In this document: one piece after another, positions 650 through 53,424 of the stretch | Numbering within the stretch: the stretch's first letter is position 1 | Layout: each line of letters begins with the position of its first letter | Assembly: GCA_964451985.1 (NCBI GenBank) | Contig: CAYVKB010000002.1 | Span: 32,240 to 96,239, forward strand | Origin: an uncultured Fimbriimonadales bacterium | GTDB lineage: Bacteria; Armatimonadota; Fimbriimonadia; Fimbriimonadales; GBS-DC | Length of the DNA: 64,000 bases | Direction: 5' to 3' | Made by a program: the position numbers and the translations under genes | The notes under the pieces: model-generated | Seen by the model: only the letters and a program-made list of their open reading frames with translations | What the model was told of the DNA's origin: nothing | Database searches by the model: none

Positions 650-1113
650 CGCGGCGGTTCCTCAGTCGCGCTAACGGGTTCTGCCTCGCGCGCACCCCAA
701 AACTGCAACACCATTAGCCCAAGCAGCGAGCAGGTAATCGCCATGTCCGCCACATTAAACACGGGCCACACCACGAAATCGAACATATCCACCACGTACC
801 CCAATCGCACGCGGTCGATGAAGTTGCCCAGCGCGCCGCCCAGTAGTAGCCCCGTCAGTAATTGCACTGCTCGGGTAGGCTTGTGCTGATGGTGATACCA
901 AATCAGCCCGCCCGCTACCGCCAGCGTGAGCGGAATGGTCAGCCAGCCGCGCCCCTCCAGCATGCCGAACGCAATCCCCGTATTGTGCGTCAACGTGAGG
1001 TAGAAATAGGGAGGTAGCACAGGCAAAGACTGATCTACATTCAGGCTTGCCGCCGCCCAGAGCTTGGTGAGCTGGTCTATGATGAACACCGTAATCGCCA
1101 CGCGCCAGAACAT
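646..1113 (-). CDS. lspA: lipoprotein signal peptidase II
   Basis: 155-aa ORF: FIIDQLTKLW...HNTGIAFG...GGALGNFIDR...FNVADMAI, typical LspA motifs. Translationally coupled to lgt. Confidence 0.9.
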   Translation of the reverse strand: MFWRVAITVFIIDQLTKLWAAASLNVDQSLPVLPPYFYLTLTHNTGIAFGMLEGRGWLTIPLTLAVAGGLIWYHHQHKPTRAVQLLTGLLLGGALGNFIDRVRLGYVVDMFDFVVWPVFNVADMAITCSLLGLMVLQFWGAREAEPVSATEEPPR

Positions 1114-1174
1114 CTCGCTATAAGGATACCTGAGGAGGCAGGAATCGGGGCGTTGGGGGCATACTGTAGTTCAT

Positions 1175-3370
1175 GTGGCAGTGTCGGAGGTACGGGCGGA
1201 GGCGTCTGCGTCGCGCGGGTGGTTTGACGGGCTGATGTTTTGGGGGGTGATGTACCGTCGTGCGCCCGTGACCAAGCTACTGCTGGGCAGCTGGCTGTTC
1301 GCACTGGGCGCGGGTGTACTGGGCGTGCTGCTGATGCCGCTTTTGATCAACTACAAAGGAGGCGCGGGGCTGCACGCACTACTGGGCTGGCTTGCACTGA
1401 TACACTTGCTGGCGCGCGGCTGGGTGGAACGACGTCTGCCCGACCCATCGTTTGCCCACGACCTGCGCACGGGCAACTTCGAGCAGCTACGCCTGACGCC
1501 TCACACGGCGCACACGCTACTTATACAAAGAGGCTTGCCCGATTTGCTGTTCCGCGCCCTGATGATGATCCTATGGCTGCCCCTGTACACCCTTGTTGCC
1601 CGCGTGTTGGGGCTGACCCTCGGGGATGCGCTCACGCTGTGGACGCTGTTCAGCTTCGCGAACTACTTCGTGTTGGGATTGGTCTCACTGGCGTTGCTGG
1701 TGTCGGCGTGGGAGGGTGTTGTACTTGTGCTGGGGGTGGGGCTGCTCGGATATGCGTTTTTGCTGGACGGTGGGCGCACGCGCACAGCGATCTCTAATAG
1801 CGGACTATTCGGCGTGATGATTGCCCTGCCAATTCTGGGGCGCGTACTGATGCCGCAGCATCTGATTGCGGTGTTGCCCGACTTACGGGGCTTCGCACTG
1901 CTGTGGCTGCTGATAGAGGCATTGCGATTTGAACGCACCGCGCGCTGGGTGAACGCGTCGTCGGGCGCGTGGCGTGGGTTTTTCCTGCTGCCGAGCCTTG
2001 CACTGGCTGCACTGGGGGGGCTGATGGCGTTACGTGCAGGCGAGGCGCAGGGCTACTTCGGCGGGGCACTCACGCAGTATGGCGCAATCGGCGTGATGGC
2101 GTCGGTGAGCTTTGTGAGCATCCTGCTGCTCACGCTGCGCCGTCAGGCAGAGGCAGTAGTGCAGCCGTTGCGTGTGCATCTGATGGAGATGGGGCTGCTG
2201 CGCCTGTTAGGGCTGTTGATTCTCGGCGTTGCGATTGCTGGGTGGGGCTTGCCGACGGGTACTATGGCGTTTTGGGGCGTGTTGATGTGGATAAGCGCGG
2301 TGGAGTGGTTGGGCGGTGCGCTGTTTCGGCGGTTGATGCAGCGGGCGCACAGCCGCGCTCCTGCGTGGGCGTATGGCGGGCTGCTGTTGGGAATTGTGCC
2401 TGCACTGGTTTTCTACATCGCGCCGCAGTGGGCTACGCTGGGCGCACTGAGTCCGATCTTCGCGCTCACGATGGCGTCCGATGCGTGGAGTGCGACGCGG
2501 GTGTCGGTTCAGCCCCCGCTGTGGCTGTGTGCGGCGATGCCTGTCGTGCGGTATGGGGTGGTGTTGGGCGTGCTGGCGTTGGGGGCGACGGTAGGGCGTG
2601 CTGCGTTGCCTCGTCGTGCGCCTGTCACCCTGCGCTGGCTGGCGTTGCCGCTGCTCTATCCGATACTGGACTGGTTGGTGCAGCAACGCATGCAGAATCC
2701 TGTCGCACGCCTAACGACTTTTGAGCGTCAGCCGCCCTTCGCGCCAATCTTGGGCGTCGCTGCCTTCGCTCTCTTCGCGCTGGATAGTGCGGGCAGCGAC
2801 TGGCAGCTGTTTCTGCTGATACCAATGGGTATTTTCTTGTGGCTATGGGGGTACCATTCCACGGGCAAGCGTGTGCGCCGCTGGCTCGATTCGGGTGAAC
2901 TCAGCAGCGCATTTCTGGCGGGTCTGGCACCACAGCAGCTGTTCTGGGGCTGGGTGTATGGCGCGTGGCATCAGCAGGGGCGAGCGCTGCTGGCGGCGTT
3001 CAGTGGCGCGATGCTGGGTTGGCTGGTTCGCGCGGCGTTCTCGGCATCGTCGTTCAGTATGGGTATGGGCGTCGCTTGGCTAACCTTCGTGTTTGGCATT
3101 GGCGTTGGGCTTCAGATAGTCTATGTTGTGCTTTGGTCATGCGCGTGGCTGATTGCTGCGCCCGCTGCCATCCGTGACCAGCTAACCGCTCCGCAAGCCA
3201 CCGCGCCCCTGCTTACACCCCGCGCGGTGATTCAGTCGGCGTTCTTCAGCGTAGTCGCGTGCTGCGCGCCGCTTGCGCCATTCCTGCTAATTGGCTTGCC
3301 CATTTACGCCTCGCAAAGCATCATAGCCCTGCACAAACTCGCCCGTGCACCTGGGGAACTTAAACGCTGA
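1175..3370 (+). CDS. large polytopic membrane protein of unknown function (ABC-2-permease-like motif)
   Basis: 731-aa ORF with many hydrophobic segments. LRTGNFEQLRLTPHTAHTLLIQRG resembles the E-x-GT-x-E-x-L-x-TP signature of ABC-2 type permeases. No ATPase partner nearby. Start uncertain (GTG 1175 or ATG 1235). Confidence 0.55.
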   Translation: MAVSEVRAEASASRGWFDGLMFWGVMYRRAPVTKLLLGSWLFALGAGVLGVLLMPLLINYKGGAGLHALLGWLALIHLLARGWVERRLPDPSFAHDLRTGNFEQLRLTPHTAHTLLIQRGLPDLLFRALMMILWLPLYTLVARVLGLTLGDALTLWTLFSFANYFVLGLVSLALLVSAWEGVVLVLGVGLLGYAFLLDGGRTRTAISNSGLFGVMIALPILGRVLMPQHLIAVLPDLRGFALLWLLIEALRFERTARWVNASSGAWRGFFLLPSLALAALGGLMALRAGEAQGYFGGALTQYGAIGVMASVSFVSILLLTLRRQAEAVVQPLRVHLMEMGLLRLLGLLILGVAIAGWGLPTGTMAFWGVLMWISAVEWLGGALFRRLMQRAHSRAPAWAYGGLLLGIVPALVFYIAPQWATLGALSPIFALTMASDAWSATRVSVQPPLWLCAAMPVVRYGVVLGVLALGATVGRAALPRRAPVTLRWLALPLLYPILDWLVQQRMQNPVARLTTFERQPPFAPILGVAAFALFALDSAGSDWQLFLLIPMGIFLWLWGYHSTGKRVRRWLDSGELSSAFLAGLAPQQLFWGWVYGAWHQQGRALLAAFSGAMLGWLVRAAFSASSFSMGMGVAWLTFVFGIGVGLQIVYVVLWSCAWLIAAPAAIRDQLTAPQATAPLLTPRAVIQSAFFSVVACCAPLAPFLLIGLPIYASQSIIALHKLARAPGELKR

Positions 3371-4898: not shown

Positions 4899-4925
4899 AC
4901 CCGCTCGATGCCCCATCGAGCGGGT
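4899..4925 (+). terminator. 11-bp stem hairpin after the pseudopilin gene, abutting a TATAAT box (4925-4930) upstream of murA
   Basis: ACCCGCTCGAT-gcccc-ATCGAGCGGGT read directly. The downstream tract is only moderately T-rich. Confidence 0.35.
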
Positions 4926-4977
4926 ATAATCGTTTGCAGTTGCAGGACGCATCTTTGGGCAAGGAGGACATACGCTG

Positions 4978-7289: not shown

Positions 7290-7336
7290 ACGCTTCCTAA
7301 ACCTCTCTGGGGATATGCTCAGGTACACTTAGCGGT

Positions 7337-8689
7337 ATGCGCATCCGAGTTCTCAAGTTTGGCGGCACGAGCGTGGACACTCCGGAACATCGCCATATGG
7401 CGGCGCGGAAGGTAATACAGTGTATCGAGTCGGGCGCGCGCCCTGTGTTGGTAGTCTCGGCGATCGGCAGGCGTGGCGCGCCCTACGCCACCGATACGCT
7501 GGTGGAGCTGCTGACGCAAATAGACCCCACCATCCCGCCTGCACCGCGCGAGCGTGACCTGATGATGGCGTGCGGCGAGATTATCTCCACTGTGATTATG
7601 GCGCAGACGCTGCGCACGCTGGGCTACGCGACCGTCGCCCTGACTGGCAATCAGGCGGGCATCATCACCGATAATGAGTTCGGCAACGCGCGGATTTTGG
7701 AGATTAACCCCGAACCGATTTTGCGCTGTTTGGAGCAGGGCTGGATTCCGATTGTGGCGGGGTTTCAGGGCGTGACTCGCTCCGACGCGATTTTCCAGCG
7801 CGGTTCGATTACCACACTGGGGCGCGGAGGCAGCGACACCACCGCCGCTGCGCTGGGCGCAGCCCTGAGGGCGGAAGCCGTTGAAATCTACACCGATGTG
7901 AATGGCGTCAAAACCGCCGATCCCGATTTCGTGCCCGACGCCATTACCCTGCCTGAAGTGAGCTACGAGGAGGTGGCGGAGATTGCCCACCAAGGCGCGC
8001 GCGTGCTGCACCCCCGCGCCGCCGAAATCGCGATGGACTACGGCATCCCGTTGTGGGTGAAATGTACCTTTACCGACGAAGCGGGTACGCGCGTCGCCGC
8101 CCATGCCAACGGGCAACGGCGCATCACAGGCGTCACCCACACGGGCAAACTGGCGTATTTGAGCTTCTATATCCCCTACCCGGAACACAAAGCACAACTG
8201 GAGCTGGAGATTTATCGTCTGATGGCGCAGGTAGGCGTGAACCTGCAGGGCGTAGGCGTGGACGAGGAGGGGCTGGGCTTCGCTTTTCCCCGCGAACATT
8301 GGCATACCGTGCGCACGGCGTTAGATGGGCTGGTCGTACCCCTGGGCGAGCCGAGCGCGTTCTACCTGTTCCAGTTCGGCGAGGTGCCCAGCCAGCTGTG
8401 CCAGATTCAGCGCGATATGCTGCATAAGGCGGGGCTATCCGAATGTGTGCGCACGATTACAATCGCCATCGCCGAGGGCTGCACGATGGTCTCACTGATT
8501 GCCGACGGCTATAGCCGCCAACCGGGTGTATTCGCCGAGCTGCACCAAACACTGATCGAGGCGGGCATCCCCATCTGGCAAACCGCCGACTCGGAGCTGT
8601 CGTTATCGTGCATCATTCCCGAAAGCGAAGTGAATAAGGCGGTGAAGTTAATCCATGACCGATTCGCACTGGACGCCGTCGCCCGATGA
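7337..8689 (+). CDS. lysC: aspartate kinase
   Basis: MRIRVLKFGGTSV...VVSAIG...TTLGRGGSDTTAAALG, followed by a C-terminal ACT-like region. Confidence 0.9.
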   Translation: MRIRVLKFGGTSVDTPEHRHMAARKVIQCIESGARPVLVVSAIGRRGAPYATDTLVELLTQIDPTIPPAPRERDLMMACGEIISTVIMAQTLRTLGYATVALTGNQAGIITDNEFGNARILEINPEPILRCLEQGWIPIVAGFQGVTRSDAIFQRGSITTLGRGGSDTTAAALGAALRAEAVEIYTDVNGVKTADPDFVPDAITLPEVSYEEVAEIAHQGARVLHPRAAEIAMDYGIPLWVKCTFTDEAGTRVAAHANGQRRITGVTHTGKLAYLSFYIPYPEHKAQLELEIYRLMAQVGVNLQGVGVDEEGLGFAFPREHWHTVRTALDGLVVPLGEPSAFYLFQFGEVPSQLCQIQRDMLHKAGLSECVRTITIAIAEGCTMVSLIADGYSRQPGVFAELHQTLIEAGIPIWQTADSELSLSCIIPESEVNKAVKLIHDRFALDAVAR

Positions 8690-9708: not shown

Positions 9709-9726
9709 CCACAAGGTATAATCGCC
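9709..9726 (+). repeat. left copy of exact 18-bp direct repeat CCACAAGGTATAATCGCC (contains TATAAT 9717-9722)
   Basis: Read directly. Identical to 11703-11720. Confidence 0.9.
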
Positions 9727-9736
9727 GCGAGACTGT

Positions 9737-11691: not shown

Positions 11692-11702
11692 TGATTGCTT
11701 TG

Positions 11703-11720
11703 CCACAAGGTATAATCGCC
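11703..11720 (+). repeat. right copy of exact 18-bp direct repeat CCACAAGGTATAATCGCC (contains TATAAT 11711-11716)
   Basis: Read directly. Identical to 9709-9726. Confidence 0.9.
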
Positions 11721-11726
11721 TCCGCT

Positions 11727-13235
11727 ATGGACGCCCGAACAATCTACCAGCACTTGGAGAACTGGCAGAAAGAGACTGCGTTATTAGGTTCTATTGCAGG
11801 CGTATTGGGCTGGGATCAGCGCGTTATGATGCCCGCCAAAGCCGCGCCCCATCGCGCGAACCAGCTAGCGCTGCTGTCGGGGATGATTCACCAGCGCGCC
11901 ACCGACCCGCGCATCGGCGAGTGGCTGCTCGAGCTGGAACAAAGCGACCTGACCCAGCCAGTGGATAGCGTGACCGCTGTGAACATCCGTCAGTGGCGAC
12001 GCGAATATGACAAACTGACCAAACTGCCCACCGAACTGGTGATAGAGTTCACGCGCGTCACCAGCCTCGCCGAAAAGGTGTGGGAGGAAGCACGCGAGGA
12101 GTCGGACTTCAGTCTATTCCAGCCTCATCTGGAGAAGATTGTGAGCCTTGTGCGCGAGATTGCTGAACGGCTGGGGTATGCAACCGAACCTTACGATGCA
12201 CTGTTGGACGAATATGAGCAGGGCATGACCGCGCAGGAGGTGGAGCGGCTCTTCGAGCCGTTGCGCCGCCACACGCCCGAACTGGTCGCGCAGATTCAGA
12301 GCGCCCCGCGCAAGCCGCATACCAGCATCCTGCGCCAACACTACCCTCGCGCCGCGCAGGAAGCCTTCTGCCGCCTCATCGCCGAGTCCATCGGATTCGA
12401 CTGGCAGCGCGGACGGTTGGACCCCACGGTGCATCCGTTCGCTACACGCCTTGCGCCGGGTGATGTGCGCATCACCACGCGCTACTATGAAGATTTCCTG
12501 AACCCGTCGCTGTTCGGCACGATTCACGAGCTGGGGCATGCACTGTACGAGATGGGGCTGCCCGAAGAGCACTGGGGAACTCCGATGGGTGCGTCGACCT
12601 CGCTGGGGATGCACGAGTCGCAATCGCGCATGTGGGAGAACTTCGTGGGGCGCAGCCGCGCGTTTTGGGAGTATTTCTATCCCATCGCGCAGCAGCACTT
12701 CGACACCCTCAAAGACATCTCGCTGGACGACTTTGTGTTTGCTGTGAACGCAGTGCAGCCCTCCACCATTCGCGTGGAAGCCGACGAGGTGACCTATAAC
12801 CTGCACATCATGCTGCGCTTTGAGCTGGAGCTGGCGTTGCTGCGGGGGGAGCTGCAAGTCGCCGACCTGCCCAGCGCGTGGAACGAGCGGTTCAAAGCCT
12901 ATATGGGCTTCACCCCGCCTAACGACGCTGAGGGCGTGCTACAGGATGTTCACTGGTCGGGCGGGATGATTGGCTACTTCCCGACCTATAGTTTAGGCAA
13001 CATCTACGCGGCGCAGCTGTACGAGGCGGCCGAGCGCGACTTGGGCGACCTACACGCGCAGTTCCGTAAGGGCGAGTTTATGCCGTTGCTGGAGTGGCTG
13101 CGTGAGAAGATCCATCAGCAGGGGCAACGCTACTCGGCAAAGGAATTGATTCAGCGCATCACGGGCAACCCGCCCAGTGCTGAGCCGCTGATTGCCTACT
13201 TCCAGCGAAAATTCATGCCCCTGTACGGGCTGTAA
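11727..13235 (+). CDS. carboxypeptidase Taq-type metallopeptidase (M32)
   Basis: HELGHALYE zinc motif, HESQSR, and typical M32 length. Start set at ATG 11727 (MDARTIYQHLENW). Confidence 0.9.
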   Translation: MDARTIYQHLENWQKETALLGSIAGVLGWDQRVMMPAKAAPHRANQLALLSGMIHQRATDPRIGEWLLELEQSDLTQPVDSVTAVNIRQWRREYDKLTKLPTELVIEFTRVTSLAEKVWEEAREESDFSLFQPHLEKIVSLVREIAERLGYATEPYDALLDEYEQGMTAQEVERLFEPLRRHTPELVAQIQSAPRKPHTSILRQHYPRAAQEAFCRLIAESIGFDWQRGRLDPTVHPFATRLAPGDVRITTRYYEDFLNPSLFGTIHELGHALYEMGLPEEHWGTPMGASTSLGMHESQSRMWENFVGRSRAFWEYFYPIAQQHFDTLKDISLDDFVFAVNAVQPSTIRVEADEVTYNLHIMLRFELELALLRGELQVADLPSAWNERFKAYMGFTPPNDAEGVLQDVHWSGGMIGYFPTYSLGNIYAAQLYEAAERDLGDLHAQFRKGEFMPLLEWLREKIHQQGQRYSAKELIQRITGNPPSAEPLIAYFQRKFMPLYGL

Positions 13236-13364: not shown

Positions 13365-13455
13365 TGAAAAAACCATCGAGCGAGGCGTTTACCCTTAGGA
13401 CTGCCTTGAGAGTGCACAGGTTCCCACGCAAAACCGCTTCAGGTAAAATTTTCGC

Positions 13456-13809
13456 ATGGCGCACCCTCGCATCGTGGGGATGGATCCGTACATCGAAGCG
13501 CAAATCACGCCTGAGCGGATGACTTCCACAGTGATACCTCGCATCGTGGGGATGGATCCGTACATCGAGGCGCAAGCGTGGCGTGATTGCCACGCAGAGA
13601 TGATTTCAGGGATACGCGCATCGCTGACAACCCGGTTCGCGCCCAAGTACATTGCACGCATCGAGGAACAAATCTACATCGACGAAGGATATCACGACGC
13701 ACAAATGCGCGACCCTGACATCGCCCTCGAGAGGGTACGCCCCGGTACATCCCACACAGGTGGCGAAGTTGCTCTTGCTATTAAGCCGATTGAACCAGCC
13801 GCTGCCTGA
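13456..13809 (+). pseudogene. truncated DUF4058-family gene with an internal in-frame duplication
   Basis: PRIVGMDPYIEAQ...WRDCHAEMISGIR...PKYIARIEEQIYI...PDIAL matches the DUF4058 N-terminal pattern (GMDPYLE..W.D.H). Only 117 aa. A 39-nt segment is repeated at 13465-13503 and 13537-13575. Confidence 0.6.
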
Positions 13810-18882: not shown

Positions 18883-20127
18883 TCACGCCCCAAACTTCTC
18901 CTGTACACCCATGAGTTGAGTGAGAATGTTGACCAAATCGCCCCCGCGCAGGCGTCCGAGCGCCCCTTTGGCGCAGGCGTATTCGTGGAAACGCAGTACC
19001 TCGTCGCCGCGCAGGTCAGGTCCGTGCAGCAGCACGGGCACAGGGTCACCCGAATGGTCGCCCACCGAGCAGGGCGTCGAGTGGTCGCCCGTGACCATGA
19101 GATAGAACGGCTCGGTATACTGCTCCAGCAGGCGGGCGATGAGGGCGTCGATTTTCTCGATGACCTGCGTCTTGAGCATGGGGTTGCGGTCGTGCCCGCA
19201 CAGGTCGGGTGCTTTCACATTACACAACACGAAGTCGTACTGGCGCAGAGCGTTAGCAAGTGTGTCGGCGATGCTGTCATAATCGGTATCGATCCCGCCG
19301 GTTGCGCCGGGCGAGTCGAGCGTGTCCATGCCCACGAAGCGCGCGATGCCGCGGATTAGTCCCGTCTCTACGACAGCGACGGCAGTCATACCGTGTTTTT
19401 GAGGGAACGGGTCTAAATGCGGCGCGATACCCGCCCCGCGCGGCAGGATAATGTTCGCAGGGGGCAGACCCCTTGCCCTGCGCTCGCGGTTCACAGGATG
19501 GTCATTCAGCCGCTCGTAGGAGAGTTTCACAAAAGCGTTCACGATTTGCGCAGTGTGGGCAGCGGCTGCGTCGTTAAGATCCAGTGGCTGCGCCGAGTGT
19601 ATCAACTCGCCGTCGGTGTGCGGGTCGACATCGGTGATATGGGGGCTTAGCCCCTCACCGCGCAGCACCAGCGCACCCCGATGCGCCACCGATTCTTTGA
19701 AATAGCACTGTACGCCCTCAATCTCCACACCATTCACCGCCTGCGCCAGCTCCGCCGTGCCCTCCGTGATGCGTCCTGCGCGACGATCCAGCACGCGCAT
19801 CTCTGCATCCACCGTGCTGAAATTGCAGCGAAGCGCGACGTCGCCCCCGCGCACCTCCATCCCAATCCCCAACGCCTCAAACGGACCGCGCCCCTGATAC
19901 ACTTTGTAGGGATCGTAGCCCAGTATGGCCAGATGCGCTGTATCCGATCCGGCGCGGATGCCCGGCGCAATCGGATCCATCAGTCCGCACTCGCCCTCGC
20001 GTGCCAGCCTGTCCAACGTCGGTGTAGAAGCGTACTCCAGCGGGGTCTTGTGTCCCATCGAAGCCACAGGGCGGTCGCCCAAACCGTCGGCAATCAGCAG
20101 TAAACCCTTGTACAACGCACGCGCCAT
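18883..20127 (-). CDS. apgM: 2,3-bisphosphoglycerate-independent phosphoglycerate mutase, archaeal type
   Basis: LLIADGLGDRPV...TPTLDRLAREGECGLMDP...GSDTAHLAILGYDP...TGDHSTP. Start set at ATG 20127. Confidence 0.9.
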   Translation of the reverse strand: MARALYKGLLLIADGLGDRPVASMGHKTPLEYASTPTLDRLAREGECGLMDPIAPGIRAGSDTAHLAILGYDPYKVYQGRGPFEALGIGMEVRGGDVALRCNFSTVDAEMRVLDRRAGRITEGTAELAQAVNGVEIEGVQCYFKESVAHRGALVLRGEGLSPHITDVDPHTDGELIHSAQPLDLNDAAAAHTAQIVNAFVKLSYERLNDHPVNRERRARGLPPANIILPRGAGIAPHLDPFPQKHGMTAVAVVETGLIRGIARFVGMDTLDSPGATGGIDTDYDSIADTLANALRQYDFVLCNVKAPDLCGHDRNPMLKTQVIEKIDALIARLLEQYTEPFYLMVTGDHSTPCSVGDHSGDPVPVLLHGPDLRGDEVLRFHEYACAKGALGRLRGGDLVNILTQLMGVQEKFGA

Positions 20128-20143
20128 AGCAGTTCGAGTATAC

Positions 20144-20800: not shown

Positions 20801-20857
20801 CGGGCGAGAGTATACCCGTCGGAACTCACCCAATGGGTCGTCAGGTATCTTATAGGT

Positions 20858-23966: not shown

Positions 23967-24065
23967 GATACATAACCCTCCTTGTAATGTAGTGTACGTT
24001 GCCCAAGACCACTTGGGCAACGCACCTAAATTATACCTAATCGATTTTCTATGGGTTCAAAATCG

Positions 24066-28945: not shown

Positions 28946-28951
28946 ACCTCC

Positions 28952-28978
28952 ATTATAGCCTATTTCAGGGAGTGTCAA
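28952..28978 (-). promoter_or_regulatory. near-consensus promoter TTGACA-15-TATAAT, with the -10 box only 6 nt from the ATG
   Basis: Minus-strand TTGACA (28973-28978), TATAAT (28952-28957), then GGAGGT and ATG 28945. Confidence 0.5.
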
Positions 28979-29914: not shown

Positions 29915-29922
29915 ATCCCCGA

Positions 29923-29948
29923 ATTATACTGAGCACAGCAGGTATACT
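29923..29948. promoter_or_regulatory. back-to-back divergent -10 boxes in a 41-nt intergenic gap
   Basis: Minus-strand TATAAT (29923-29928) lies 8 nt from ATG 29914. Plus-strand TATACT (29943-29948) lies 7 nt from ATG 29956. Neither has an SD sequence. Confidence 0.45.
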
Positions 29949-29955
29949 CGCCCGC

Positions 29956-34680: not shown

Positions 34681-34735
34681 GCCCTCTGCGCTGGTTCGGA
34701 TAGAAGGAGCCTCCTTCGAGTACAATCTACCCGCG

Positions 34736-35482
34736 ATGAGTCTGGCGCAAACCTATTTCGAGCGCGTCCGTGCGCAGATAACTGAACTGGAGCGACGGTC
34801 GCTAACTGCCATCGAGCAAGCTGCTGACCAGTGCTCTGAATGCCTGCTGCAGGGTGGCGTGATTCATGTGTACGACACAGGGCACTTAGTCTCGCGCGAA
34901 CTGATTAACCGCGCGGGTGGCTTGGCGGCGTTCAGCTCGCTAAGTTTCGATTTGCAAGTGACCAACACGAACCCCTACCGCGAGGCGCATGGCGTCGGTG
35001 CGCAAACCACGCCCGAAACCGTGCGCTGCATCGTCCACGCCGCTTTAGACCGAAGCCGAGTCGCCCCTAACGATGTGCTCATTATCGGCAGCGTGTCAGG
35101 CAAGACGCCTTTCCCTGTGGAACTGGCAATTCAGGCAAAGGCACGTGGCGTGTTCACGATTGGACTTACGGCGATTGACTACTCGTCCGAGCTCCAATCC
35201 GAACACGAATCGGGCAAGCGGCTGTTCGAGGTGGTGGATTTAGTGATTGACAACGCTGCACCCTATGGCGACGCGATGCTGAGTTTAGAGGGTGTGGAGA
35301 CGGCGTTCTGCCCCGCATCGGGCGTCGGCGCGGCAGTCGCGCTGTGGGCGTTGGTCGCGGGCATCGTGGAGCGCATGGCGGCGCAGGGCAAGCCCCCCAC
35401 TCTCTTAGCCAGTATCAACCGTCCCAACGGTATGGAGCATTACAAGCAAACCATCGAGCAGTATAAGCAGCGGGGCTACTGA
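34736..35482 (+). CDS. SIS-domain protein (UPF0309-like)
   Basis: 248 aa: GGVIHVYDTGH...IIGSVSGKT, a sugar-isomerase-domain pattern. Confidence 0.7.
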   Translation: MSLAQTYFERVRAQITELERRSLTAIEQAADQCSECLLQGGVIHVYDTGHLVSRELINRAGGLAAFSSLSFDLQVTNTNPYREAHGVGAQTTPETVRCIVHAALDRSRVAPNDVLIIGSVSGKTPFPVELAIQAKARGVFTIGLTAIDYSSELQSEHESGKRLFEVVDLVIDNAAPYGDAMLSLEGVETAFCPASGVGAAVALWALVAGIVERMAAQGKPPTLLASINRPNGMEHYKQTIEQYKQRGY

Positions 35483-36534: not shown

Positions 36535-36560
36535 CAGGGCAGTAGGTATACTTTTCGCCA

Positions 36561-37808
36561 ATGAACCTGCATCAGACCACCTTGAGCAACGGCGTTCGCG
36601 TTGTGGCGGAGGCAATCCCCACCGTGCAGTCGCTGACCGTGAGCATCTGGATTCGCGCGGGATCGCGCGACGAGCTACCCCACCAGCACGGCATCGCCCA
36701 CTTTTTGGAGCATATGCTGTTCAAGGGCACGTACACTCGTACCGCCGCCCAGATTGCCCAAGAAATTGAAGGACGCGGCGGCGTGCTGAATGCCTCCACA
36801 GGCAAAGAACTCACTTTCTACTATGCCCGCATGCTTGCCGAGCATATGCCCGTCGCCGTCGAAGTGCTGAGCGACCTTTTTCTGAACGCCCGCTTAGCCC
36901 CCGACGATATCGAGCTCGAAAAAGGCGTAATCTTGGAAGAGATGCGCATGATTGAAGACACGCCCGACGAGATTCTGCACGATCGCGTGTCAGAGGTACA
37001 TTGGGGCGACCACCCGCTGGCGCGACGCATCATCGGCACGCCCGATACCGTGAGCGCGTTCACTCGTGAGATGCTACTGGAGTTCACCCGCACCCACTAT
37101 CGCCCCGAGCGTGTGGTGGTGGCGGCAGCAGGCAACTTAGACCCTGACGCGCTGTTTGCGGAAGTGGATCGTTGGCTGGGACGCTGGAACCCTGAACCGC
37201 CCGCTGCCGACGCGCCCGCACAGCCTATCCCGTCGCGCTACCCGAACGCCCCGCCACACCATATCGAAACCCGCGATGTGGAGCAGACTCACTTCGCCCT
37301 CGTGATGGACGGCGTGTCGTTTTTCGACGAGCGGCGCTACGCCCAGGCGGTGCTGAACACCCTGCTGGGCGGTAGCATGTTCAGCCGACTATGGCAGGAG
37401 GTGCGTGAGAAACGCGGACTTGCCTACGAAATCGGCAGCTACGCGATGCCGATGTCCGACGGCGGGCTATTCGTAATTTACAGCGGCGTTGCGCCCAGCG
37501 CGTTTGAGCAAGCCGTGCAGGTCATCGATACCGAACTGGGCAAGCTACTTACCGAGCCGCCCAGTGATGACGAGGTGGCGAGTGCACGGAACCTGCTTAA
37601 GGGCAACCGCGTGCTGGCGCTGGAGTCGACGCAGGCGCGCACGGAACTCATCGGCAGCGAGACCCTGATGCGTGGCTACGTGACCCCGATGGAGGAGATT
37701 ATCGCCCACATCGACGCCGTCACGCCCCAGAGCATCCACGCGCTCACCCAGCAACTGCTGACCCCCGAACGGCGTACCCTCGTTGCAATCACGCCAGAAG
37801 AGGTATAA
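36561..37808 (+). CDS. M16-family (pitrilysin/insulinase-like) zinc peptidase
   Basis: GIAHFLEHMLFKGT inverted zinc motif (HxxEH). 415 aa. Confidence 0.9.
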   Translation: MNLHQTTLSNGVRVVAEAIPTVQSLTVSIWIRAGSRDELPHQHGIAHFLEHMLFKGTYTRTAAQIAQEIEGRGGVLNASTGKELTFYYARMLAEHMPVAVEVLSDLFLNARLAPDDIELEKGVILEEMRMIEDTPDEILHDRVSEVHWGDHPLARRIIGTPDTVSAFTREMLLEFTRTHYRPERVVVAAAGNLDPDALFAEVDRWLGRWNPEPPAADAPAQPIPSRYPNAPPHHIETRDVEQTHFALVMDGVSFFDERRYAQAVLNTLLGGSMFSRLWQEVREKRGLAYEIGSYAMPMSDGGLFVIYSGVAPSAFEQAVQVIDTELGKLLTEPPSDDEVASARNLLKGNRVLALESTQARTELIGSETLMRGYVTPMEEIIAHIDAVTPQSIHALTQQLLTPERRTLVAITPEEV

Positions 37809-37847
37809 TGAGTGCACGCGGGGCAATCCCCGCGGAGGCGAAAACTT

Positions 37848-38937: not shown

Positions 38938-38962
38938 AGCACTCGGAGGTATACTCTCCTAG

Positions 38963-39326
38963 ATGATCGGCGTGCGAAGCACACTCCCGCCGCCCGATAT
39001 CGAGTATCCCGACACGGACGGAGAACCGATGGCGAACAACACGATACAGGCGCAAATGATGATGACCTTCCAAGAGAACCTGGAGGCGATGTTCCGCCAC
39101 TACGACGAAGTGTTTATCGCCATCGATCTGTTTTGGTATCCCGTCAATGGTAACAACATGGAGCGTACCCCCCCGATATGATGGTGGTCTTCGACGCCCG
39201 AAGGACACCGACGCTCCTACAAGCAGTGGGAAGAAGGTCAGGAAGAACACGAACGTGCCCAACAAATGGCGCAACGCCTCCCAAGCACCGGAAGCTGAAC
39301 TCAAAGGGCTGAAAGGCGAGGCATAA
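38963..39326 (+). pseudogene. Uma2-family (DUF820) endonuclease remnant
   Basis: IEYPDTDGEPMANNTIQ...DLFWYPVNG, then a stop. The continuation PDMMVVF..R(S)YKQWEE is seen only after frame changes. The nuclease core is missing. Confidence 0.6.
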
Positions 39327-40525: not shown

Positions 40526-40566
40526 TCCCCTCCGCGCCGCGCCTGTAGCAGGTACACTTGAAGTGT

Positions 40567-41460
40567 ATGATTAAGTTCTCCAACGGCGAGCAGGTGGAGT
40601 TTTTCACGGGCAGTGGCGCGTTGGGCTTCGACGGGCGCGGGTGGTGGTGGGAGTACCCCCTGCGTTGGATGGGTGTTTTGAATCCCCACGATTTCGCGAT
40701 TGTGGTGAAGACTCTCACGCTGCGCCCGCGTCGGGGCAACCTGCGCTGGTACGCCCCGTGGCGCTGCGTGCGCCTGATACGCGGCGGCACGGTGAACGCT
40801 GTTGGCTTGACCAACCCCGGGATCGATTGGTGGCTGCGCGCCTGCTACCCCCGGATGCGCCGCATGGGGCTGCAGATTGTGGTCTCGGTGTACCCCGAAA
40901 GCCTTGAGGAGGCGCAGGCGTTCGCCGAGAAGCTGCGTCCGCTGCAAATCACAGCGATCGAGCTGAACGCCTCCTGCCCGAATGTGGAACACTGCGAGGT
41001 GGACGCCGTGAACCATGTGCGCACAATCGCCCAAACCTTAGCCGACACGGGGCATCCCCTGATTGTCAAGGTGGGCTATGACCAGCCCTATGTAGCAATT
41101 GCACAGGCGTTGGAGGGCGTCGCGGAGGCAATCCATGCGATTAACGCCGTGCCATGGCGCATGGTGTACCCGAATCAGCCGTCACCCCTGGCGAAACTGG
41201 GCGGGGGCGGCGTGTCAGGCGAGCCGATACGACCGTATGTGCGCGAGGCAATCCAGCGTCTCACGCAAGCCACCATACTACCTATTATCGCAGGGGGCGG
41301 AATCTACACGCTATCGGACATGCAGGAACTTTGGGAGTTAGGTGCGCGGGCGTTCAGCATCGGCACGCTGTTCCTGCGCGCTCCGTGGATGCCGAACCGT
41401 CTTGTCCGCGCGTGGCGCGAGGCGCAAGCCTATGCCTACCACCTACGCGAATCTCACTGA
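40567..41460 (+). CDS. dihydroorotate dehydrogenase-family protein (class 1-like)
   Basis: NAVGLTNPGIDWW...IELNASCPNV...GGGVSGEPIRP...IIAGGGI. Leaderless-type ATG at 40567. Confidence 0.7.
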   Translation: MIKFSNGEQVEFFTGSGALGFDGRGWWWEYPLRWMGVLNPHDFAIVVKTLTLRPRRGNLRWYAPWRCVRLIRGGTVNAVGLTNPGIDWWLRACYPRMRRMGLQIVVSVYPESLEEAQAFAEKLRPLQITAIELNASCPNVEHCEVDAVNHVRTIAQTLADTGHPLIVKVGYDQPYVAIAQALEGVAEAIHAINAVPWRMVYPNQPSPLAKLGGGGVSGEPIRPYVREAIQRLTQATILPIIAGGGIYTLSDMQELWELGARAFSIGTLFLRAPWMPNRLVRAWREAQAYAYHLRESH

Positions 41461-42653: not shown

Positions 42654-43553
42654 CTACACATCCAGCGAGGCAGAGGCAGGCACAATCTTCCCATGCTCGC
42701 GCGTAAGAAAATGCACTTCGCGGATGCCGTTGCGCAGTAGGTGTTCACGCGCCTCGTCCAAGCCGAAACCGACTTGAGTTGGGCGGTGGCTGTCGTCGCC
42801 GATGCAGAACATCACGCCCATTCGCGCACCCAGTCGCACTATCCAGTCGGCGGGGTAGGGCTGGTCTAAGCCTTTGCGCAAGGCGGAGGTGTTCACCTCC
42901 ACGCGCGCGCCTACGCTGCGAATCGCCTCCAACGCATATTCGGCGGCGCGGCGCACGCGCTCCGTTGATATCTGCTCCAGCATGCCCAAGCGCGCGGCTT
43001 TCAGGCGCACCAAATCCAGATGCCCAATCACCTCCGGGCGCACTGCTTGTGCCATCTCCGCCACCTTGTGATAATACCGTACAGCAACCTCCTCCATCCC
43101 ACCCACCTGTGCCATCATGTCGAGAAAGTTCTTATCAGAGTAGCCATCGATAGAGGCATCATGCAGGTAATGCACCGAACCGACCATATAGTCAAATTGA
43201 TACTTCTGGCGGTAGTGTTGCACCAGCTCCGCATAGCGGTCTTGCGGCACTACTTCGATTTCGAAACCGCGCAGAACGGTCAGTCGGTCGGCGAATTCGT
43301 CGGCGAGTTGACTAATCGTGTGCGCGTAGCGGTCGAAGATTTCATCTAAGGTCTGTGGCGTCCAGCCCCACTCAATCTCTTTAGGGTAGAGGAACTTGGC
43401 TTCTACACGGGGCATATGCTCCGCCACACCGAACACATGATAACCTGCCTGATGTGCCGCTTCCAGAATCTCGCGCAGGCTGCCCTCAGCGTGCTCACAG
43501 AACTCGCCGCTGTGCCCGCCATGCAGCGAGATCTTCCACTCCGCCTTTTGCAT
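42654..43553 (-). CDS. histidinol-phosphatase, PHP family (HisJ/HisK type)
   Basis: ISLHGGHSGEFCEHA...GVAEHMPR...GSVHYL...IGHLDL...DDSH. Confidence 0.85.
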   Translation of the reverse strand: MQKAEWKISLHGGHSGEFCEHAEGSLREILEAAHQAGYHVFGVAEHMPRVEAKFLYPKEIEWGWTPQTLDEIFDRYAHTISQLADEFADRLTVLRGFEIEVVPQDRYAELVQHYRQKYQFDYMVGSVHYLHDASIDGYSDKNFLDMMAQVGGMEEVAVRYYHKVAEMAQAVRPEVIGHLDLVRLKAARLGMLEQISTERVRRAAEYALEAIRSVGARVEVNTSALRKGLDQPYPADWIVRLGARMGVMFCIGDDSHRPTQVGFGLDEAREHLLRNGIREVHFLTREHGKIVPASASLDV

Positions 43554-43771
43554 AGCAGCGAAGAGTATACCCCGCCACCACTTCGAGCCAATTCCGCCAA
43601 ATTCCCGAATTCCCTGTCCGGTTTTGGACGAGTTTTGAGTCTATATGGGGTGGAATGCCTTGCGAAGGCGTTCCACAGGGCGAATTAGATAGAAATCAGC
43701 GGCGCTGGGCTTTGATCCTCCTTTCGACAGCGTCGCTTATTTTTCGAGTGGCTGGTGTATACTTATTCCTG

Positions 43772-44497
43772 ATGGACACAACAAAGCCTCTCATCGGCAT
43801 TACGGCGAACTGGAAGTTGGTGGACGAGATTAGCGGCAAAGTGAGTATGAACGATGGTTATGCGCGTTCGGTGGCTCGTGCGGGGGGCGTGGCGGTGCTG
43901 ATACCGCCCGGTGCGGATGCAGAGGCGTTGGCGGAACATCTGGACGGATTGCTAATTCCCGGCGGTGCGGATATTGACCCCAAATATTACGGTGAGGAGC
44001 AGCACCCAGAGGCGAAAATTGTGAACGCTCCGCGCTTTGAGGAGGAGTGGGCGTTGCTGCAGGCGTTCGAGGCGCGGCGTAAGCCGATTTTGGGCATCTG
44101 CTACGGCTGCCAGTTGCTGAATGTGTGGCGGGGCGGCGCGCTGTATCAGCACCTGCCCGATTTGCCTACTGTGACCCTCAAACACCAGCGCACCAGCTCC
44201 GACGAGCCGTTCCCGCGCCACTTTGTGGAGGTCGCCACCGATTCGAAGTTGGCGCAGATTGAGGGGCAAACGCGCTTCGAGACCGTGAGCGCGCACCATC
44301 AGGCAATACGCACGCTGGGCAAGGACTTAGTGATTACCGCCTACTCGCCCGACGGCGTGATAGAGGCGATTGAAGACCCTACACACCCGTTCTTTATCGG
44401 CGTGCAGTGGCATCCGGAACGCGACCCTGACGCTCCCGCCACGCGTCGCTTGTTCGAGGCTTTCGTTCAGGCGTGTGGGACACATCGGAGCGGCTAA
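43772..44497 (+). CDS. class I glutamine amidotransferase / peptidase C26 (gamma-glutamyl-GABA hydrolase-like)
   Basis: PLIGITAN...IPGGADIDPKYYGEE...GICYGCQLLNV...SAHHQAI...GVQWHPE. Confidence 0.85.
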   Translation: MDTTKPLIGITANWKLVDEISGKVSMNDGYARSVARAGGVAVLIPPGADAEALAEHLDGLLIPGGADIDPKYYGEEQHPEAKIVNAPRFEEEWALLQAFEARRKPILGICYGCQLLNVWRGGALYQHLPDLPTVTLKHQRTSSDEPFPRHFVEVATDSKLAQIEGQTRFETVSAHHQAIRTLGKDLVITAYSPDGVIEAIEDPTHPFFIGVQWHPERDPDAPATRRLFEAFVQACGTHRSG

Positions 44498-47048: not shown

Positions 47049-47577
47049 AAATCAGCTCCTTCAGGGCATCGATTCCTTGTCCCGACAGCCCTATCGTCGG
47101 CAGCACGGGCGCGCCCAACTGCTGCTGCAGCGCATCAATCTGGATATTCAGCCCTGCACGCTCCAGCTCGTCCATCATGTTCAGCACCAGCACAACAGGC
47201 GCACCCGTCTCCATCAGCTGCGCGGTAAGAGGCAACATCCGCGCGAGGTTCTTGGCGTCAATTACATGCAACACCAAATTGGGACGGTCGCGCAACAGGA
47301 TGCGCCGCGCCACGCGCTCCTCGTCGGTAATCGGCGAAAGCGAATACATGCCCGGCGAGTCGATAATCACAAACTCGCGCCCGCGATAGCGCATCAGCCC
47401 GCGTGAAACCTCGACCGTCGTACCCGGATAGTTGGAGACCGTGACATAGCGTCCTGTGAGTTTATGGAACAGCACGCTTTTGCCCACGTTCGGGCTGCCC
47501 ACAATCAGCACGGTCGGTTTCGCGTCGGCGCGCGCCTGCCTGCGCATGGATTCCTCAGCAGTGGCAACAGTTGGCAT
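47008..47577 (-). CDS. feoB: FeoB N-terminal GTPase domain as a separate ORF
   Basis: GSPNVGKS (G1), NYPGTTVE (G2), DSPGMYS (G3), LNMMD (G4). Ends 41 nt after the start of the membrane ORF, in a different frame. Confidence 0.9.
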   Translation of the reverse strand: MPTVATAEESMRRQARADAKPTVLIVGSPNVGKSVLFHKLTGRYVTVSNYPGTTVEVSRGLMRYRGREFVIIDSPGMYSLSPITDEERVARRILLRDRPNLVLHVIDAKNLARMLPLTAQLMETGAPVVLVLNMMDELERAGLNIQIDALQQQLGAPVLPTIGLSGQGIDALKELIYDRLADTDLPHRD

Positions 47578-47585
47578 TTTCCATA

Positions 47586-47615
47586 AATATACCCTTTAGC
47601 GTGGCTAAATATCAA
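47586..47615 (-). promoter_or_regulatory. feo promoter candidate TTGATA-18-TATATT, with the -10 box 8 nt from the ATG
   Basis: Minus-strand TTGATA (47610-47615) and TATATT (47586-47591). ATG at 47577. No SD sequence. Confidence 0.45.
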
Positions 47616-50423: not shown

Positions 50424-50441
50424 GCGGTAGAATCAGGGTAT

Positions 50442-50623
50442 ATGGTTCAACATCGGATTGTGAGGATGGATCCGCACACTGAGGCGCAAGCGTGGCGCGA
50501 TTTCCACGCCAGCTTTTGATACCCGTGCCTCTGCTGCGCGGCGACCCCGATGTGCCCATCAACCTGCAAGCGGTGTACAGAGCGTCTACGCTCGCGTCCG
50601 CTGCCGTTCGTTCCCACGAATAG
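50442..50623 (+). pseudogene. heavily deleted DUF4058-family remnant
   Basis: MVQHRIVRMDPHTEAQAWRDFHASF, then a stop. A C-terminal-like segment IPVPLLRGDPDVPINLQAVY lies in another frame. Nucleotide-level similarity to 13537-13600. Confidence 0.5.
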
Positions 50624-50637
50624 CGCTTGAGGTTACT

Positions 50638-50715: not shown

Positions 50716-51724
50716 ACATCTCCCGCAGCAGCTCCAACATCGCCCTGTCCAGCTTGTACCCACGCCAATTTTCGTAGGGCACATCGGCGCGGTCGCTCTC
50801 GAGGACGCCGAACGATCCGCGGAAGTTCCACAGCGCCCAGCCCCAGCCCGCCTGCTTCCAGAGTTCGAGCAGGTCGCGCATCCATGCCAGCACAACGGCG
50901 TGGGGCGTATGCTTGTATGCGCCGAACTCGCCCACCATCACGCCCACGCCTTTTTGCTCGAGCGCTTTCCAGCGGGCGTAATAGGCGTCCCACAGGCGTT
51001 GCTTGTCCCAGACTACATCGCCCTCGCGCAGGGGATACTCTGTAGGCGGCTGCCAGCGGTCTGCACCTTGCACCCACTCGGCGCGATAGTGCGTTAATCG
51101 GAATGGCTGATACCCGCGCGTCGCTTGCGCCACATTCAGAGGGAGCAGCTCCTCGCTGGGGGTGCCGCCCCAATCGCGCCCGTCGCACACAATCAGCCGC
51201 TTCGAGTCCTCTTTGCGAATCGCCTCCACCACACGCTCCACGACCTTGCGATGCGACTCGGCGTCCACATTCGCCGGCTCGTTGAAGAGGTTGAAACTCA
51301 GTTGGCGGTTCGAGATGCCCTTATAACGCTTGGTGAACTGTGTCCAGTGGTGAACGCAGATTTTCTGCGCTTCCTCGTCCTTCCACAGGTTCAGCCGTTC
51401 AGGGGGCGACGCCACCGTGTAGCCAGGCGCGCGATGGAAGTTGAGTTGAACGTGCAGTTTGTATTGCTCCCCGAAGCGCACGGCGCGGTCAATTTCGCGC
51501 AGTTCCTCCTCGCGCAGGCGGTAGGGATTGTCGGTGTCCGTCCAGATGCGGTAGTCCATCGGTAGGCGCACGAAGTTGAATCCCAGCTCAGCAATCCACT
51601 CGAAGTCCCGCTCGTCGAATCGCGTGTTGCTCCACTCCAGCCCGAATTTATTGAGCAGGTTGAATCCGCGCCAGCGGGGCAGCTTGCGTGGCGTCGGCTC
51701 TGGCAAACTCGCGCGTTGTGGCAT
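50714..51724 (-). CDS. glycoside hydrolase family 5
   Basis: NFVRLPMDY...LNFHRAPGY...FNLFNEPA (catalytic NEP)...GEFG. Confidence 0.85.
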   Translation of the reverse strand: MPQRASLPEPTPRKLPRWRGFNLLNKFGLEWSNTRFDERDFEWIAELGFNFVRLPMDYRIWTDTDNPYRLREEELREIDRAVRFGEQYKLHVQLNFHRAPGYTVASPPERLNLWKDEEAQKICVHHWTQFTKRYKGISNRQLSFNLFNEPANVDAESHRKVVERVVEAIRKEDSKRLIVCDGRDWGGTPSEELLPLNVAQATRGYQPFRLTHYRAEWVQGADRWQPPTEYPLREGDVVWDKQRLWDAYYARWKALEQKGVGVMVGEFGAYKHTPHAVVLAWMRDLLELWKQAGWGWALWNFRGSFGVLESDRADVPYENWRGYKLDRAMLELLREM

Positions 51725-51765
51725 AGTGGAGAGATTCTACCCCCATCAGGTATCCTTTCCGCTCG

Positions 51766-53424
51766 ATGCGTCGGTTCTGGTGTTGGTTCGTTCTGGCGGG
51801 TCTGCTTGCAGGCGCGTTTCCGCAGTCGTTGCCGCCGTCGGTTGCGCTCACGCGCCGCATGGGGCTGGAAGGGCGCGTAATGTGGGTCGACGCCACCGCA
51901 AACCTCAGCTGGCTGATTGACCGCGCCCAGATACGTGATTTCGTGCGCAAGTGCCGCGAGGTGGGCATCAACTGCATCGTGCTGGACGTGAAGCCCATCA
52001 GCGGACATGTGCTCTACAACAGCCAGATTGCCCCCAAACTCACCGAGTGGCGCGGCGTGCAGGTTCCACCTGACTTGGACGTGCTGCAAGTGTTTCTGGA
52101 AGAGGCACACGCGATTGGGCTGGAGGTGCATGCGAATATTAATGTACTTTCCGAGGGGCACAAGATGTTCAGCGCGGGTCCCGCCTACGAGAATGTGGAC
52201 TGGCAGATGGTGGCGTACTCGCGCCGACGCACGCTGGTGTTGCCCGACGGCTCGCGCTATGACCTGAATCGGTTCGACACCACGCCCCCGCCTGATGGAA
52301 TCTCTGCCTATCGGCGCAACCCTGCGCCCATGCCGCCCGCCGGACGCAGTTGGGCGTATGCGGTTCTGACCGACGATTTGCGCGTGCAGGCAGTGATTGA
52401 CGGAATGTTTGTCACTCGCCCGCTCACGCCTCCTGAAAACGGCTGGATTCTGGTGGCGGACGGTCAGGCGGCGCAGAACTTAGAACGGCTCAGCACACTC
52501 GGAACCCCGCTGACCCTGCAAACACAGCCTATTCTGCAGCCAATCGCCGAGTCGGACACGGAGGGCATCGCCGTGTTCGTAAACCCGATGCACCCCGTAG
52601 TGCGCGAGCGACTGCTGAGTATTATCCGCGAGATTTGCCAGAACTACCCGATTGACGGCTTCGTGTTAGACCGCATGCGCTGGGCGAATGTGTATACCGA
52701 TTTTTCTGAGCGCACGCGGGCGGCGTTCGAGGCGCAGTTCGGACATGTGAGCAATTGGCCCGACGACATCGTGCGCCCTCCCACACTGCCCCGCGAGGGC
52801 TACGAGCGTGGTCCACGCTTTGCGCAGTGGGCGGAGTTCCGCGCAGGTGTGATTCGCAACCTGCTGCGCGACATCCGCCGCACTATCGAGTCCGTACGAC
52901 CGATGCCCATCGGCGCGTATGTGGGTAGCTGGTACCCCATCTACTTTGAACTCGGCGTGAACTGGGGCAGCGACGCCTTAGCCCGACCCTACGGCTTTGT
53001 CAGCCCCGAATATCGGCTCACCTCCTATCTGTACGATATGGACTACCTGATGCCGGGCGTCTATTACCCCGTGCCGTTTATGAACGAAGCTCCTCTGTAC
53101 GACGCCGATGAGATCCGTACGGTGGAAGGCATGACACGCCGTGTGATGGAGTGGACGAACGGCGATTTGTTCGTCTACTCAGGTATCTACGCGCTGGACT
53201 ATCGAGGCGACCCGTCGGGCTTCGAGCGGGCGATACGCGCCGCACGACTAAACTCGCACGGCGTGATGATTTTCGACGCCTCGCATATCGTGCAGTGGGA
53301 CTGGTGGGAGGCGATTCGGCGCGGCTTAGGCACGCCCGATGGCTTGGCAACTGACTCCGTACCCCTTGCGCCCCATCAGCTGCCCTCGCTGCTGCCCAGC
53401 TTGCGGAACGGCGGCGGGGGATAG
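51766..53424 (+). CDS. glycosyl hydrolase-like 10 (GHL10/YngK-like) family protein
   Basis: Signal peptide. RVMWVDATANL...GINCIVLDVKPISGHVLYNS...GLEVHANINV. The family call is from motif memory. Confidence 0.6.
   Translation: MRRFWCWFVLAGLLAGAFPQSLPPSVALTRRMGLEGRVMWVDATANLSWLIDRAQIRDFVRKCREVGINCIVLDVKPISGHVLYNSQIAPKLTEWRGVQVPPDLDVLQVFLEEAHAIGLEVHANINVLSEGHKMFSAGPAYENVDWQMVAYSRRRTLVLPDGSRYDLNRFDTTPPPDGISAYRRNPAPMPPAGRSWAYAVLTDDLRVQAVIDGMFVTRPLTPPENGWILVADGQAAQNLERLSTLGTPLTLQTQPILQPIAESDTEGIAVFVNPMHPVVRERLLSIIREICQNYPIDGFVLDRMRWANVYTDFSERTRAAFEAQFGHVSNWPDDIVRPPTLPREGYERGPRFAQWAEFRAGVIRNLLRDIRRTIESVRPMPIGAYVGSWYPIYFELGVNWGSDALARPYGFVSPEYRLTSYLYDMDYLMPGVYYPVPFMNEAPLYDADEIRTVEGMTRRVMEWTNGDLFVYSGIYALDYRGDPSGFERAIRAARLNSHGVMIFDASHIVQWDWWEAIRRGLGTPDGLATDSVPLAPHQLPSLLPSLRNGGGG

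Follow-up and report, generated by a model that had tools for sequence, protein, structure and literature searches.

How is translation started on genes whose start codon lies only a few nucleotides behind a promoter-like box? The question is raised by a stretch of 64,000 nt on contig CAYVKB010000002.1 (assembly GCA_964451985.1) of an uncultured Fimbriimonadales bacterium, which we call the window and whose numbering is used for all positions (G+C content about 60 %). A sequence-only reading of this stretch had listed about 19 genes in which a TAnnnT hexamer, usually preceded by GG, lies 6-10 nt upstream of the initiation codon with no Shine-Dalgarno (SD) sequence. The best reading, and one we consider quite probable, is that these genes would be transcribed into leaderless or near-leaderless mRNAs, with a 5' untranslated region (UTR) of 0-3 nt, alongside SD-led genes. 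All computational tests that were run pointed the same way, towards gene starts of leaderless type.

The box and its enrichment before start codons

When the 50 nt upstream of each start were extracted, the hexamer and start-codon coordinates were exact at all 19 sites, and the gap (the number of nucleotides between hexamer and start codon) was 6-10 nt throughout. A TAnnnT hexamer was present at 18 of the 19, all of them with ATG; the claim failed for the big membrane protein, which has CATACT and GTG. The number of sites had been set too low, as the starts at 13456, 53627 and 56447 also match the pattern, in addition to a 25-codon remnant open reading frame (ORF) at 50442 (Table 1). In total, box-led genes make up about 21 of the approximately 60 genes in the window and about half of its transcription units.

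The 19 sites and three extra candidates (13456, 53627 and 56447) were aligned on the hexamer, and this 22-site alignment gave the consensus R-G-G-T-A-t-A-c-T. The first T is found in 21 of 22 sites, and the A and the final T in all 22. The two positions before the hexamer hold G in 19/22 and 21/22 sites, respectively, in agreement with the GG noted earlier, and a purine stands before the GG in 21/22. The absence of SD sequences was borne out as well, since none of the 19 spacers holds one at a usable distance; the GGAGGT in the spacer of the SpoIID-like gene is only 1 nt away from its ATG, a distance too short for an SD to function.

The box is far more frequent than composition predicts. In the window, GGTATANT was matched 13 times (2.05 expected), GGTANNNT 96 times (53.7 expected) and GGTANNNT-N{6,10}-ATG 25 times (4.31 expected, standard deviation 1.7; none of 100 shuffles reached 25). 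Because a choice of starts guided by the motif would make the reasoning circular, a test without gene calls was applied, in which, for each copy of the motif on either strand, ATGs opening an ORF of at least 100 codons were counted gap by gap from 0 to 40. In the window, 16 of 96 GGTAnnnT boxes had such an ATG at gap 6-10, against about 0.3 per gap elsewhere. The corresponding numbers were 32 of 138 boxes in close relatives and 33 of 178 in the next-closest relatives, and control hexamers gave no peak at any gap in the same test.

When about 383 kb of the clade was pooled, 96 of 477 boxes had a long-ORF ATG at gap 6-10, with about 12 expected as background (13, 15, 23, 25 and 20 at gaps 6, 7, 8, 9 and 10, respectively). 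In the same sequence GTG formed a small peak at gap 7, and no peak was observed for TTG, CTG or ATC; a like dominance of ATG with no TTG is known from experimentally mapped leaderless genes (PMC4007540). The box-ATG arrangement is seen in 65 independent gene families after orthologues were collapsed and two further loci added. Gene order among the 80 genome loci around lysC is not conserved beyond near-identical strains, so the loci sample largely different genes and are more independent for statistics, but they offered no comparison for the sites of lspA, M32, murA and other window genes. For five related loci with 93 genes, a tally based only on the starts that outside pipelines had called gave a GG/TAnnnT box at gap 6-11 for about 23 genes and an SD for about 40.

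Table 1 Box sites in the window, with the residue of the proposed protein at which its Pfam profile starts and the length of the same product in outside gene calls
Feature	Coordinates	Strand	Box	Spacer (nt)	Start codon	Pfam profile starts at residue	Outside call (aa)	Remarks
lspA	1111..1130	-	GGTATCCT	9	ATG 1113	5 (Peptidase_A8 position 1)	155	
Big membrane protein	1158..1177	+	GGCATACT	9	GTG 1175			Weak, doubtful member
lysC	7322..7339	+	GGTACACT	7	ATG 7337		450	
M32 carboxypeptidase	11709..11729	+	GGTATAAT	10	ATG 11727	10	502	
DUF4058 fragment gene	13442..13458	+	GGTAAAAT	6	ATG 13456			Extra site
apgM	20125..20144	-	GGTATACT	9	ATG 20127	7	414	Box overlaps M50 stop codon TAG
M50 protease	20798..20816	-	GGTATACT	8	ATG 20800			
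dsbD-like	20844..20860	+	GGTATCTT	6	ATG 20858			First start codon of ORF
SpoIID-like	28943..28959	-	GCTATAAT	6	ATG 28945		839	TTGACA further upstream; spacer GGAGGT
Formiminotransferase (ftcd)	29912..29930	-	AGTATAAT	8	ATG 29914	6 (FTCD_N position 2)	301	
beta-CASP	29941..29958	+	GGTATACT	7	ATG 29956			
SIS-domain gene	34719..34738	+	AGTACAAT	9	ATG 34736	6 (SIS_2 position 1)		
M16 peptidase	36545..36563	+	GGTATACT	8	ATG 36561	13		
Uma2-type remnant	38948..38965	+	GGTATACT	7	ATG 38963			72 codons
DHOD-like	40551..40569	+	GGTACACT	8	ATG 40567		297	
PHP/hisJ-type	43551..43571	-	GGTATACT	10	ATG 43553			
C26 peptidase	43756..43774	+	TGTATACT	8	ATG 43772	6 (position 1)		
FeoB G-domain gene	47575..47593	-	GGTATATT	8	ATG 47577	22 (FeoB_N)		
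DUF4058-like remnant	50426..50444	+	GGTAGAAT	8	ATG 50442			25 codons; extra site
GH5	51722..51741	-	GGTAGAAT	9	ATG 51724			
GHL10	51749..51768	+	GGTATCCT	9	ATG 51766			
DHH/NrnA-like	53609..53629	+	GGTACAAT	10	ATG 53627	20 (DHH)		Extra site
ABC ATPase (LptB-like)	56432..56449	+	GGTAGAAT	7	ATG 56447	19 (ABC_tran)		Extra site; box inside 3' end of upstream ORF
Ordinary promoter, murA	4923..4930	+	GGTATAAT		TTG 4978			47 nt before start; AAGGAGG SD between
Ordinary promoter	24030..24037	-	GGTATAAT		ATG 23966			Leader of about 63 nt with hairpin, then AAGGAGGG SD
Ordinary promoter, tatA-like	37802..37809	+	GGTATAAT		ATG 37848			38 nt before start; leader hairpin and GGAGG
tRNA cluster promoter	60431..60438	+	GGTAAAAT					11 nt before mature 5' end of tRNA-Arg, first of three tRNAs; TTGCAA 18 nt upstream

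Some of the boxes stand before decayed genes. Two DUF4058-type fragments (13456-13809 and 50442-50519) each lie behind a box; the former carries an internal duplication of the peptide IVGMDPYIEAQ and the latter is the 25-codon remnant (MVQHRIVRMDPHTEAQAWRDFHASF). Together with the Uma2 remnant, they are decayed genes with intact promoters of leaderless type. The apgM coding region also contains, in antisense orientation, a perfect GGTATACT box (19114-19121 (+)) that no ATG follows at gap 6-10 and that may be a spurious promoter or one for antisense transcription.

The M32 promoter exists in two copies. Relative to the contig of a strain that is 99.9 % identical (L002), about 2 kb are inserted in the window (9709-11720). 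The inserted genes are those for a Dam-family D12 adenine methyltransferase (9737-10645) and for a protein of 383 aa (10540-11691) that matched no family and has low G+C at third codon positions. An exact direct repeat of 18 bp, CCACAAGGTATAATCGCC, flanks the insertion (9709-9726 and 11703-11720). What is repeated is the M32 promoter box, so the promoter was duplicated by the insertion; one copy now lies 14 nt ahead of the methyltransferase and the other 10 nt ahead of M32.

Conservation of the box in relatives

The lysC product is 92-96 % identical to proteins from metagenome-assembled genomes (MAGs) of Fimbriimonadales or Armatimonadota, many of which come from hot springs; the complete genome AP024673.1 'KatS3mg018' is among them. 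Twelve relatives with a protein identity of 88 % or more retain caGGTACACT at gap 7-10, while the spacer and the upstream DNA diverge. In relatives with 78-83 % identity (L014-L021), lysC is without the box, lies behind another gene and has a GAGGT(G) SD 6-9 nt upstream. The gene apparently switches its initiation mode within one order.

Similar patterns were observed for other genes. Upstream of beta-CASP, aaGGTATACT is present at gap 9 in relatives with 68 % identity (L083/L084); a metagenome scan with this gene returned only relatives with 68 % identity or less. For M50 and apgM, GGTATACT is invariant and the spacers variable in three genomes with 77-80 % identity (L118-L120). Relatives with 62 % identity carry either GGTACTCT or GGTAGGCT before the M16 gene, at gap 9, and the C26 gene has GGTATACT at gap 7 (L121) or at gap 8 with a GTG start (L122) in relatives with 80 % and 71 % identity. 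Thus, for six genes (lysC, beta-CASP, M50, apgM, M16 and C26) the box is kept while its flanks or spacer diverge.

The peak of ATGs behind the box is strong in the clade of the window, weak in Fimbriimonas-like and other Armatimonadota loci, and missing from Chthonomonadales loci (86 observed, about 85 expected). This distribution parallels published SD usage, which is 25 % in Fimbriimonadia and 70 % in Chthonomonadetes (PMC10783764).

Promoter element, ribosome site or misplaced start

In the 22-site alignment T-12, A-11 and T-7 are near-invariant and the middle positions degenerate, as in -10 elements of sigma-70 type. The conserved positions are those read by region 2 of sigma-70. No conserved -35 column was found 16-18 nt upstream (canonical TTGACA); -35-like elements occur at individual promoters only, such as those of the tRNA cluster (TTGCAA) and the SpoIID-like gene (TTGACA). 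Whereas the extended -10 in other bacteria is TGn, no TGn is seen in the alignment, and the extension is R-G-G, directly abutting the hexamer. Since the same box precedes the tRNA cluster and also lies well upstream of SD-led genes (Table 1), the sites appear to contain a -10 element of sigma-70 type, not a ribosome site.

Operon-internal genes are without the box; they either use AGGAGG or overlap the neighbouring gene. AGGAGG-type sites are clear at murA, fur, pilB, the 300-aa gene and others, as had been noted from the sequence. Box-led and SD-led genes therefore stand side by side in the window, likewise in the five related loci, and the proposed coexistence of two initiation modes was supported. 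A third class of genes has the -10 box 12-20 nt before the start and an SD inside a leader of about 5-13 nt (for example 24968 (-), 15945 (-), 4038 (+) and 3406 (+)); such an SD would sit at the extreme 5' end of the mRNA.

Perfect GC-rich hairpins follow directly 3' of two GGTATAAT boxes, ahead of the SD (23997-24023 (-) and about 37817-37834 (+)). Rfam matched only the three tRNAs and no known leader RNA, and gave no family for the two hairpins. A literature search for GGTATAAT returned only unrelated synthetic promoters. Origin of the sites from a repeat or mobile element was rejected because only 8-9 nt are common to them and the flanks are unrelated.

Two explanations would deny the box its role as a promoter of short-leader genes. 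One holds that it is a non-SD ribosome-binding signal in an ordinary 5' UTR, in the style of GeneMarkS-2 'group B', with AGGT pairing with the extended anti-SD UCACCUCCU and promoters located further upstream. The motif-to-start distance is indeed roughly fixed, and the frequent aGGTA contains AGGT, which agrees at four bases with AGGAGGUGA, the SD type reported for Fimbriimonadia (PMC10783764). However, what is conserved is the T, A and T of TAnnnT and the GG, with no run complementary to the anti-SD, and the distance between the end of AGGT and the ATG would be too long, at 11-15 nt. Operon-internal genes, before which a group B signal should occur, also lack the motif, and it is found before tRNA genes and, at 38-63 nt from the start, before genes with an AGGAGG of their own. 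Moreover, the divergent gene pairs leave no room for other promoters. The ATGs are 41 nt apart in ftcd/beta-CASP and in GH5/GHL10 and 57 nt apart in M50/dsbD, and in the two 41-nt pairs the space is filled by two back-to-back boxes. We give this explanation a very slim chance. The other, by which TAnnnT is a loose pattern from which favourable cases were picked, has next to no probability. Plain TAnnnT does occur 805 times in the window, and its peak at gaps 6-10 is only about 2-fold (30 vs about 13), but with the GG prefix the excess rises to about 6-fold over shuffles and about 8-10-fold over adjacent gaps. Flat control hexamers and the retention of boxes across relatives also speak against chance.

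A further alternative accepts the boxes as real promoters and places the true translation starts further downstream in frame, behind a normal leader. Four of the starts (M50, apgM, SpoIID-like and DHOD-like) had been chosen with help of the motif, shorter than in the ORF track, and an independent call on an identical contig puts the big membrane protein at ATG 1235, 60 nt downstream of 1175. Nevertheless, 11 of the 19 starts are the first possible start codon of their ORF. Positions 1-2 of the Pfam profiles align at residues 5-22 of the proposed proteins, so that starts further downstream would truncate the domains. Near-identical contigs for comparison were available in GCA_900096875.1 and Logan assemblies, and outside pipelines gave the same starts for lspA, lysC, M32, M50, apgM, SpoIID-like, ftcd and DHOD-like, and also for the DUF4058 fragment at ATG 13456 (L002 position 6215). 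Homologue lengths agree: most of the closest listed M50 homologues have 218 aa, and most C26 homologues 235-241 aa. The ATGs align with conserved N-termini in relatives, by which the beta-CASP start is fixed, and no SD precedes the listed downstream candidate starts of these genes. Misplaced starts are accordingly considered a slim chance. The four shortened starts are backed by homologue lengths and outside calls; the ORF track over-extends M50, apgM, SpoIID-like, C26 and beta-CASP. In a related genome, the M50 protein (L119 10001-10690, P0015) is annotated with 229 aa, 11 residues too long, from a start that lies upstream of the conserved GGTATACT box.

Probable leaderless initiation in the Fimbriimonadales

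Under the preferred reading of leaderless or near-leaderless mRNAs, R-G-G-T-A-n-n-n-T would be the -10 element of a housekeeping promoter of sigma-70 type, extended and needing no conserved -35. RNA polymerase would start 7-8 nt downstream of the box, and the mRNA would begin at the AUG or 1-3 nt before it. Since a leader of 0-3 nt has no room for an SD, direct recognition of the 5'-terminal AUG by the ribosome would be required. In the bacteria studied, leaderless initiation proceeds with 70S ribosomes, or with 30S subunits together with initiator tRNA and initiation factor IF2. AGGAGG-type SD sequences would serve the operon-internal genes and another group of first genes, the latter behind the same kind of promoter. 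We infer both the transcription start site (TSS) and the mode of ribosome recruitment from sequence. As a general bacterial rule, transcription starts 7-8 nt after the -10 box. When this rule is applied to gaps of 6-10 nt, a 5' UTR of 0-3 nt is predicted, which is below the 6-nt limit for leaderless genes (PMC4007540).

Several points weigh against this reading. The predicted TSS comes from the general 7-8 nt rule. With a TSS precisely on the A of ATG, the gap should be 1-3 nt shorter than the 8-9 nt seen most often, so leaders of 1-3 nt may be present on many transcripts. In the clade of the window this modal gap is also longer than the box-to-start distance of 6-8 nt reported for M. tuberculosis (PMC6028130). 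The composition of the spacers hints at a TSS at position 7: none of 9 sites with gap 6 has a purine at spacer position 6, and among 17 sites with gap 9 a pyrimidine occupies position 6 in 16 and a purine position 7 in 12. This pattern was not significant after correction for the positions tested, and at gap 10 it was gone once orthologues were removed. When the folding energy of 5' ends was compared between box-led genes and SD-led or internal genes, no difference was observed for 30 and 45 nt; for 60 nt the fold of box-led genes was the more stable one, contrary to the prediction from accessibility. Some box-led genes lie directly behind a gene on the same strand (apgM after M50, SpoIID-like after ftcd), and these two may also be read from longer transcripts. 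Finally, the big membrane protein (711/731 aa) fits poorly and is the weakest entry, a doubtful one. Neither of its start candidates (1175 and 1235) has an SD or a proper TAnnnT box, no recorded gene has a product starting at 1175, and no Pfam or NCBIfam match was obtained.

The arrangement in the window resembles one that is familiar from Deinococcus and actinobacteria and would here occur in another phylum. In D. deserti, 60 % of gene TSSs are leaderless with no conserved -35, and leadered genes have an SD (PMC4007540). A UTR of less than 6 nt is classed there as leaderless, including transcripts with 1-5 nt UTRs, and the leaderless start codons are 83 % ATG, 17 % GTG and about 0 % TTG (PMC4007540). 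The window is similar in having no widely conserved -35, SD sequences on leadered genes, and mostly ATG, some GTG and essentially no TTG starts. It differs in phylum (Armatimonadota here, Deinococcota there) and in the kind of evidence, as the D. deserti TSSs were mapped by differential RNA sequencing and the proteins confirmed by proteomics, whereas the pattern in the window comes from its letters. In the window, the box carries the R-G-G extension directly upstream.

The same signature has been described as GeneMarkS-2 'group C' (Lomsadze et al. 2018, PMC6028130), in which first operon genes have a Pribnow-type box roughly 10 nt away from their start, and as 'TA-led' genes (Zheng et al. 2011, PMC3160421). 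It was read as leaderless transcription and is frequent in Actinobacteria and Deinococcus-Thermus (PMC6028130, PMC3160421). As in those groups, the box in the window lies near the starts of first genes with no SD between, SD sequences are found at internal genes and at a second class of leadered first genes, and the starts are ATG or GTG, not TTG. The Armatimonadetes are not named in the main text of either article. Mycobacteria, as summarised in PMC6028130 from Cortes 2013 and Shell 2015, have a TANNNT -10 without a strong -35, and at least a quarter of their transcripts are leaderless. On that summary the window is alike in its -10 without a strong -35 and in its mixture of SD-led and leaderless-type genes. 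GTG leaderless starts are common in mycobacteria, whereas the signal in the clade of the window is almost only ATG.

The literature search found no report of leaderless genes in Armatimonadetes or Armatimonadota beyond a table of SD usage, with the limit that unindexed tables may exist. The thermophilic Fimbriimonadales are somewhat likely, on these sequence data, to be an unreported leaderless-rich lineage in a fourth phylum. Transcription of about half of their units would begin at the AUG or no more than 3 nt from it, at promoters that work independently of a -35 and carry an R-G-G-TAnnnT extended -10 specific to the lineage. Within the phylum the trait would be unevenly spread, with Chthonomonadales lacking it and Fimbriimonas-like genomes showing it weakly. 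Its evolution would be labile as well, because lysC is box-led in relatives at 88 % identity or more and SD-led at 78-83 %.

This would add a phylum to the leaderless-rich bacteria and leave the current picture of translation initiation unchanged. For annotation, gene finders that assume an SD will misplace starts in these lineages known only from MAGs, and the overlong M50 protein of the related genome is a case of a start error from such promoters. The R-G-G extension and the missing -35 provide a testable promoter definition for an uncultured group. The contrast between Fimbriimonadales and Chthonomonadales, together with the lysC switch, offers material for the study of transitions between SD-led and leaderless genes.

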